A stretch of 64,000 nucleotides of DNA, from the NCBI GenBank assembly GCA_934101575.1, contig CAKORJ010000001.1:402994-466993 (forward strand), written 5' to 3'. The notes under the pieces are model-generated. The model made no database searches, was not told where the DNA came from, and saw only the letters and a program-made list of their open reading frames with translations. The DNA comes from an uncultured Bacilli bacterium (GTDB lineage: Bacteria; Bacillota_I; Bacilli_A; RF39; UBA660). Below, in pieces: positions 63,885 to 63,902 of this stretch; the first letter of the stretch is position 1, and every line of letters starts with the position of its first letter. Position numbers and translations under genes: made by a program.

Positions 63885-63902
63885 TAACACCTTACGGTGT
63901 TA
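63885..63902 (-). other. GC-containing hairpin immediately 3' of VR (DGR homing hairpin candidate)
   Basis: taacacc-ttac-ggtgtta (7-bp stem, 4-nt loop) beginning 7 nt after the end of TR/VR homology. No equivalent hairpin next to the TR. Confidence 0.55.

Follow-up and report, generated by a model that had tools for sequence, protein, structure and literature searches.

The stem-loop at positions 63885–63902 of the window (by which we mean the whole stretch of 64,000 nucleotides analysed here) most likely represents the target-site hairpin of a chromosomal diversity-generating retroelement (DGR), which would act in the sense DNA strand of the target gene while this strand serves as the lagging-strand template. 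A DGR hairpin on the VR side had been suggested in the preliminary description, and this reading is supported by the anatomy of the cassette and by comparison with related loci, as far as sequences can tell.

Organization of the cassette

A complete DGR occupies the end of the window on the minus strand, where all genes around 63885–63902 reside; the order is the target gene with the VR, the hairpin, a terminator-like hairpin, an ORF similar to MutS domain I, the TR, a spacer, avd, and the RT. Three features by which a DGR is recognized are present, namely, an adenine-biased TR/VR pair, a reverse transcriptase (RT) next to the TR, and accessory genes (avd and a MutS-like gene, MSL). The template repeat (TR, 134 nt, 63050–63183, minus strand) and the 3′ part of the variable repeat (VR, 63909–64000, minus strand), which runs off the window, were delineated by a repeat search and the TR/VR alignment; perfect homology stops at 63909 in the VR and at 63050 in the TR. 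The 130 aligned nucleotides contain 20 mismatches, 17 at TR adenines (nine A>T and eight A>G) and three at other bases, and these adenine-specific differences show, to judge from the alignment, past mutagenic copying with the TR transcript as a template. The repeat closes with 11 nt without adenine, TTCCTCTCGCC (63909–63919), which the TR and VR share unchanged and which thus resemble an IMH. Past TTCCTCTCGCC the copies diverge: the VR continues with TCATAA (63903–63908, minus strand), which fills the space between the end of the TR/VR homology and the stem, and the TR with CCTTAG.

The RT (338 aa, 61551–62567, minus strand) matches RVT_1 (E 1.6e-20), and its homologues adjoin TR/VR pairs in more than 30 loci. 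The avd gene (bAvd-like, 111 aa, 62548–62883, minus strand), separated from the TR by a spacer of 166 nt, matches PF22296 with E 1e-9 and 39.3 bits versus a cut-off of 40, and the accessory ORF (136 aa, 63221–63631, minus strand) is of the MSL type, matching MutS domain I (PF01624, E 6.9e-07, 29.9 bits versus a cut-off of 20.6); precomputed Pfam matches for the same avd and MutS_I genes on other contigs agree with these assignments. The ORF with MutS domain I, a mismatch-binding domain, lies between the VR and TR and is kept in close relatives. The target gene encodes 1232 aa and has the VR at its 3′ end; its body lies beyond the window and was taken from contig L001. A Pfam search of the full target protein found nothing; as to the C-type-lectin-fold variable domain expected in a DGR target, there was only a weak match to FGE-sulfatase (16.4 bits versus a cut-off of 23.3, E 0.0075).

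The neighbours of the cassette are housekeeping genes (RlmN, PP2C phosphatase, PASTA kinase, and RsgA), and hence its location is chromosomal. Directly downstream of the RT there is a PDDEXK_2/Rpn-type nuclease-like ORF (60434–61399, minus strand); since the gene at this position differs in three related loci (L084, L085, and L087), the ORF probably is not a part of the DGR, as suggested by this comparison of gene order.

An identical RT is found in many human-gut metagenome contigs, and the relatives come from uncultured Bacilli MAGs. In three other metagenome contigs with the identical RT (L001–L003), the VR, the hairpin, and the intergenic region are 100% identical to the window, and these contigs are therefore uninformative with respect to covariation. 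The VR (63909–64000; about 8520–8660 in L001–L003) is the same in four independent assemblies and carries adjacent non-adenine differences from the TR (AGT in the TR, ATC in the VR), which together suggest, at the level of sequence comparison, either that the element is quiet at present or that one strain is widespread.

The stem-loop downstream of the VR

At 63885–63902, the plus strand reads taacacc-ttac-ggtgtta, and the minus, sense strand TAACACC-GTAA-GGTGTTA (63902–63896, 63895–63892, and 63891–63885, respectively). The 7-bp stem and tetraloop of the preliminary description are correct: all seven pairs are perfect, three of them being G–C (43% G+C), and the loop is 4 nt long. The target frame, entering at the right edge of the window, ends in ...SSSRLIITP*, and its TAA stop codon (63892–63894, minus strand; from translation and the gene call in contig L001) occupies loop positions 2–4, so that the hairpin indeed encloses the stop codon of the target gene. 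It had also been placed directly past the TR/VR homology, 7 nt from its end; the placement holds, and the distance is 6 nt, or 4 nt if one isolated matching C is counted. With the stem beginning 6 nt past the homology, the hairpin falls within the published distance of 4–34 bp.

Folding as DNA upheld the hairpin on both strands, yielding -5.3 kcal/mol for the sense strand (z -4.5 versus dinucleotide shuffles, with 1/200 shuffles equal) and -4.9 kcal/mol for the plus strand (z -5.5, 0/200 shuffles equal). In a 38-nt context it is the sole structure (-5.9 kcal/mol as DNA), and it stays discrete in a 106-nt context; as RNA, the hairpin folds with -8.2 kcal/mol. When 38-nt DNA folds are calculated in a sliding window along the whole minus strand, the site is within the best 0.7%, and folds as stable as this one occur at 40 sites per 64 kb, corresponding to 0.019 expected per chosen 30-nt zone. 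The window has a G+C content of 27.6% and contains 64 perfect hairpins whose stem is at least 7 bp and whose loop is 3–8 nt long, including 17 with a 4-nt loop and 12 with at least three G–C pairs. An Rfam search gave no match to the VR hairpin.

Hairpins in related loci

For the comparison, we aligned 40 RT homologues and collected 80 related loci from species-representative genomes, plus loci of closer relatives; the survey loci are uncultured Bacilli and other Bacillota MAGs. TR/VR pairs were found by adenine-biased mismatches, the 3′ end of homology being set by a script, which resulted in 34 distinct pairs. The first version of the detector missed L001–L003 with their two adjacent non-adenine mismatches (AGT to ATC); it was relaxed, and L001 was added by hand. 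As each stem had itself been picked for being the best hairpin in its sequence, counting covariations would be circular, and thus we instead compared energies with those of TR flanks, ends of other ORFs, and random segments.

The VR flanks are clearly more structured. The mean MFE of 50-nt flanks, folded as DNA, is -5.96 kcal/mol for the VR versus -2.46 kcal/mol for the TR (n = 34 pairs; Wilcoxon p 6e-5). For the best hairpin with a perfect stem, the mean energy is -3.70 kcal/mol in the VR flanks (n = 34), compared to -1.10 kcal/mol in the TR flanks (n = 34; Wilcoxon p 1e-4), -1.43 kcal/mol at the 3′ ends of other ORFs with 150 codons or more (n = 552; Mann–Whitney p 8e-7), and -0.76 kcal/mol in random segments (n = 810; p 6e-11).

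At the cut-off of -3 kcal/mol or better, 24 family hairpins were obtained, this count including the hand-added close relative L084. They begin between -8 and +11 nt relative to the VR end and have 20 distinct stems of 5–11 bp, with loops of 4 nt in 14/24 cases and of 3 nt in 8/24. The mean G+C content of the stems is 40%, the genomes having about 28%; hence, the stems are above the background but not GC-rich. Judging by this survey, the structure and position of the hairpin are kept across the family, and its sequence is not.

In the closest relatives the stem itself is retained: TAACACC/GGTGTTA is unchanged in L004 (85% identity of the RT) and L084 (89%), and the loop on this shared stem is GTAA in the window, ATA in L004, and GCA in L084. 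Two more distant loci, L085 (68%) and L088 (61%), whose TR/VR pairs were seen by a general repeat search only, have weaker candidate stems in the VR flank, CCC-TACA-GGG and GAAC-GATA-GTTC, identified by eye and kept outside the statistics; the contig of L087 has no VR.

About 10 of the 34 related loci have no hairpin next to the VR, and so the VR hairpin is not universal even in this family. Five loci without it (L034, L040, L055, L067, and L083) carry a 6–7 bp hairpin 6–12 nt after the TR, e.g., AGGAAC-ATAAAG-GTTCCT, and in several of them the TR/VR pair is located downstream of the RT on the opposite strand.

Composition of the loops and alternative explanations

The sense-strand loops show a pronounced preference for G at the first and A at the last position. 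Such G..A loops were observed in 14/24 family hairpins versus 8.6% of 1817 comparable background hairpins from the same loci (Fisher p 1.7e-9), and the motif with the closing pair, c[G..A]g, in 12/24 versus 2.5% (p 6e-13); the antisense equivalent, a T..C loop, was found in none of the 24 family hairpins. The G..A set comprises GTAA (four cases), GTA and GAA (two cases each), GCGA, GTTA, GTCA, GTCTA, GGA, and GCA, and only about a third of it are GNRA tetraloops of the RNA type.

These data bear on the possibility that the hairpin is an element of the target mRNA, that is, a part of a tandem intrinsic terminator or a protective stem-loop at the 3′ end, with no role in retrohoming. We consider this unlikely. 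It is true that the hairpin coincides with the end of the gene, is followed after 16 nt by a terminator-like hairpin, and folds well as RNA (-8.2 kcal/mol), with GUAA being a loop of the GNRA type; however, the bases after it are GATAACAAAATA, with no T-run, while a terminator is a stem-loop and then a U/T-run, and a T-rich tail follows only about 3/24 family hairpins. Hairpins of -4 kcal/mol or better are found at the 3′ ends of 12% of the other ORFs in these loci, but in 53% of VR flanks (p 8e-7). The position of the hairpin is fixed relative to the VR end, not to the stop codon, and the loops GTA, GAA, GCA, GGA, GTTA, and GTCA fit the DNA motif GN(N)A rather than the RNA motif GNRA. We infer from the loop bias, as seen in relatives that are not phylogenetically independent, that a sense-strand DNA hairpin is favoured over both a symmetric cruciform and an mRNA element.

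The location of the TAA stop within the loop could also point to a translational signal, the stem around the stop codon modulating termination or read-through, and L007 and L012 likewise have C-GTAA-G with the stop codon in the loop. Across the family, however, the stop codon may be before, inside, or after the hairpin; in L084, the stem is wholly inside the ORF and the stop codon is four codons past it. Hence the hairpin tracks the VR end and not the gene end. Furthermore, no extended frame follows the stop in the window, the downstream codons being GVR*. A translational role is thus very improbable, and the stop codon inside the loop is incidental.

Least probable of all is a chance palindrome in AT-rich DNA: for all the 64 perfect hairpins with a stem of at least 7 bp in the window, the low expectation per 30-nt zone (0.019), the shuffle z-scores of -4.5 to -5.5, the stem unchanged in relatives with 85–89% RT identity where the adjoining bases have changed, and the 20 different stems at the same place in related DGRs speak against it.

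The TR flank and the spacer

According to the preliminary description, the region next to the TR has no such structure. This is right in substance, and two structures have to be added: a weak AT palindrome and a separate conserved hairpin about 30 nt on. The palindrome, CTATATTAATATAG (63028–63041, minus strand; CTATA-TTAA-TATAG), takes the position equivalent to that of the VR hairpin and overlaps a family-conserved (G)ACTAT..ATA motif, but as DNA it has -1.0 kcal/mol, and 94/200 shuffles are equal. The second structure, ATTGT-TTAAGG-ACAAT (63004–63019, minus strand), lies in the spacer about 30 nt past the TR. Relatives share the loop TT(T/C)A(A/C)GG and have different stems, and a stem of at least 4 bp is present in 17/34 TR flanks. 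We read this hairpin as a part of the spacer RNA and not as a counterpart of the VR hairpin.

The spacer region (62902–63049, minus strand) opens with the family-conserved (G)ACTAT..ATA motif, and the stems of the hairpin with the TT(T/C)A(A/C)GG loop covary. Its segment 62902–63027, containing the 63004–63019 hairpin, matches Rfam RT-14 over the full length of the model with a sub-threshold score (35.9 bits versus the gathering score of 48.1), and in ten relatives no match at the gathering score was found; therefore, the spacer was not assigned to RT-14. In the model system, the spacer RNA structure recruits and primes the RT (PMC12875486), and the structure 3′ of the TR probably has this function in the present DGR clade, as our analysis of the spacers suggests.

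The region between the target gene and the operon

The terminator-like hairpin of the target gene (63829–63868, minus strand) is located 16 nt downstream of the VR hairpin and consists of a 14-bp AT-rich stem (63835–63868) with the loop GGATAA (6 nt), followed by T6 (63829–63834). As RNA, it has -13.9 kcal/mol (z -7.6). It had been described earlier as a second hairpin at 63841–63862 with an 8-bp stem and a 7-nt loop, serving as the transcription terminator; the latter interpretation is reasonable, and the dimensions need correction to 14 bp and 6 nt, the 7-nt loop having included one G twice. This hairpin is conserved in L004 and L084, and an A-to-G change in L004 creates a G–T(U) wobble in the stem, which, by its sequence, is as expected for an RNA terminator. 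A simple terminator scan called neither of the two hairpins downstream of the VR and reported only the palindrome at 63739–63775 on the plus strand; it misses the 14-bp hairpin because the latter has only two G–C pairs.

Two other elements were observed between the target gene and the operon. A perfect 12-bp hairpin (63743–63771; minus strand, CATAACAAAAGT-TTAAT-ACTTTTGTTATG) separates the target terminator from the operon promoter. L084 and L004 have it with 100% conservation and variable flanks, the terminator scan reports it on the plus strand, and it could serve as an operator or a further terminator. Immediately before the MSL-TR-avd-RT operon, a (TG)10 repeat (63662–63687, minus strand) is inserted between a perfect TTGACA and an extended -10 box TG-N-TATATT, and the resulting spacer of 21 nt exceeds the length suited to a sigma-70-type promoter. 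Diverged relatives show the (TG)n arrangement too, with 10, 18, and 9 repeats (L084, 493–512; L087, 214–249; and L005, 3270–3287, respectively), and L004 (about 5880–5900) has a short degenerate TG tract and an 18-nt spacer. The tract may mediate slipped-strand phase variation of DGR expression, of which we know no report.

Possible role of the hairpin

By analogy with BPP-1, the RT–Avd complex would make adenine-mutagenized cDNA from the TR RNA without the target, and the antisense cDNA would then replace the VR. The hairpin and the short diverged stretch after the adenine-free TTCCTCTCGCC would mark the VR as the recipient and raise the efficiency of cDNA integration, and the TR, having no hairpin, would stay the invariant donor. 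The term “target-primed homing” used in the preliminary description has been superseded, as cDNA synthesis in BPP-1 does not depend on the target, its primer being an adenosine in the DGR RNA spacer (PMC5703328, PMC6182149). The accompanying statement that efficient homing needs the hairpin is sound in that the hairpin raises homing efficiency, but it goes too far if taken as a strict requirement (PMC3240598, PMC12875486).

Editing is favoured for targets co-directional with replication, where the sense strand, which pairs with the cDNA, is the lagging-strand template, and the stem-loop has been proposed to prolong the open state (PMC12875486). In the window, the minus strand carries 30/38 long ORFs; the GC skew of the plus strand is -0.07 for the whole window and mixed by 8-kb bins. 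Given this gene-strand bias, on which alone the orientation is based, the target is probably co-directional with replication, and the strand with the G..A hairpin would be the lagging-strand template at this locus. We further infer that the active form could be the DNA hairpin of the sense strand, whose C-GTAA-G (loop with closing pair) belongs to the c-GN(N)A-g class of unusually stable DNA mini-hairpins. Such a hairpin would hold the neighbouring VR in single-stranded form or halt fill-in synthesis directly in front of the VR, giving time for cDNA annealing.

The hairpin confirms that the DGR target site of this uncultured lineage of human-gut Bacilli is complete and follows the plan of functional DGRs, and it marks the exact place where diversification should stop. 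VR hairpins without GC-rich stems are retained even in very AT-rich genomes. The sense-strand bias of the c-GN(N)A-g motif makes the model of strand-specific cDNA integration directly testable and, for annotation pipelines, argues against demanding GC-rich stems in DGR target sites.

Comparison with known systems

A stem-loop at the 3′ end of a gene that serves as a DNA landmark for a retroelement is also known for group IIC introns, which target intrinsic terminators, an analogy drawn by Guo et al. (PMC3240598). Unlike those targets, the VR hairpin has no U-tract, and the terminator-like hairpin is a separate structure 16 nt downstream.

MSL accessory genes are present in 16 DGRs, including the Legionella element (PMC5758913), for which that survey calls the inverted repeat indispensable to efficient homing. 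By description, our cassette resembles these MSL-containing DGRs (Architecture D, including that of Legionella pneumophila; Wu et al., 2018, PMC5758913), having a small MutS-like gene together with avd. In contrast to them, most hairpin-bearing relatives studied here have too little space between the VR and TR for an MSL gene, and thus the hairpin is not tied to MSL.

The loop resembles that of the DNA mini-hairpins GCGNAGC and GCGNNAGC, known to be extraordinarily stable (PMC13037366, PMC3201870). Similarly to d(GCGNAGC) and d(GCGNNAGC), the VR hairpin combines a C–G closing pair with a G..A loop of 3–4 nt, here C-GTAA-G, and the hairpins of L069 and L042 contain the exact GCGAAGC of this class. 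The difference is in the second pair, which here is C–G and not G–C (CC-GTAA-GG), and the stability of C-GTAA-G was derived from nearest-neighbour parameters, which ignore the special loop of the mini-hairpins. With this in mind, we propose, quite tentatively, that in the DGR clade of low-G+C Bacilli the VR element may be a strand-specific single-stranded DNA mini-hairpin (in the sense strand, with c-GN(N)A-g, an AT-rich stem, and a 3–4-nt loop) that holds the VR open on the lagging-strand template, and not a GC-rich cruciform. Were this true, the loop motif rather than the stem composition would be the conserved determinant, and the published prevalence of 34%, which refers to “GC-rich inverted repeats,” would be an underestimate.

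The closest parallel is provided by BPP-1 and related phages. In BPP-1, efficient retrohoming requires a stretch of 24 bp with inverted repeats that lies immediately 3′ of the VR (Guo et al., 2011, PMC3240598). This DNA forms a hairpin/cruciform in a supercoiled plasmid; the structure of the stem matters and its sequence does not. Replacement of four G–C pairs by A–T greatly reduced the activity (PMC3240598). Related phage DGRs have GC-rich stems of 7–10 bp and 4-nt GRNA loops in the sense strand, 4–34 bp from the VR (PMC3240598), and GC-rich inverted repeats were found in 34% of 372 DGRs, none of them after the TR (Wu et al., 2018, PMC5758913).

The hairpin described here agrees with the characterized ones (PMC3240598) in its position directly 3′ of the VR (4–6 nt versus 4–34 bp), stem length (7 bp versus 7–10 bp), 4-nt loop with G first and A last on the sense strand, absence beside the TR, and variation of the stem sequence among relatives with the structure being kept. 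It differs in that only 3/7 pairs are G–C, so that the stem is not GC-rich, and in the loop GTAA, which deviates from the GRNA consensus by T at position 2. Other differences are the 3-nt GNA loops common in the relatives, the stop codon in the loop, and the host, a low-G+C gut Bacilli chromosome and not a phage, where the hairpin is known from sequence alone. Thus, as judged by these features, the VR hairpin is a low-G+C variant of the known DGR target-site hairpin, an ordinary finding of a known kind.
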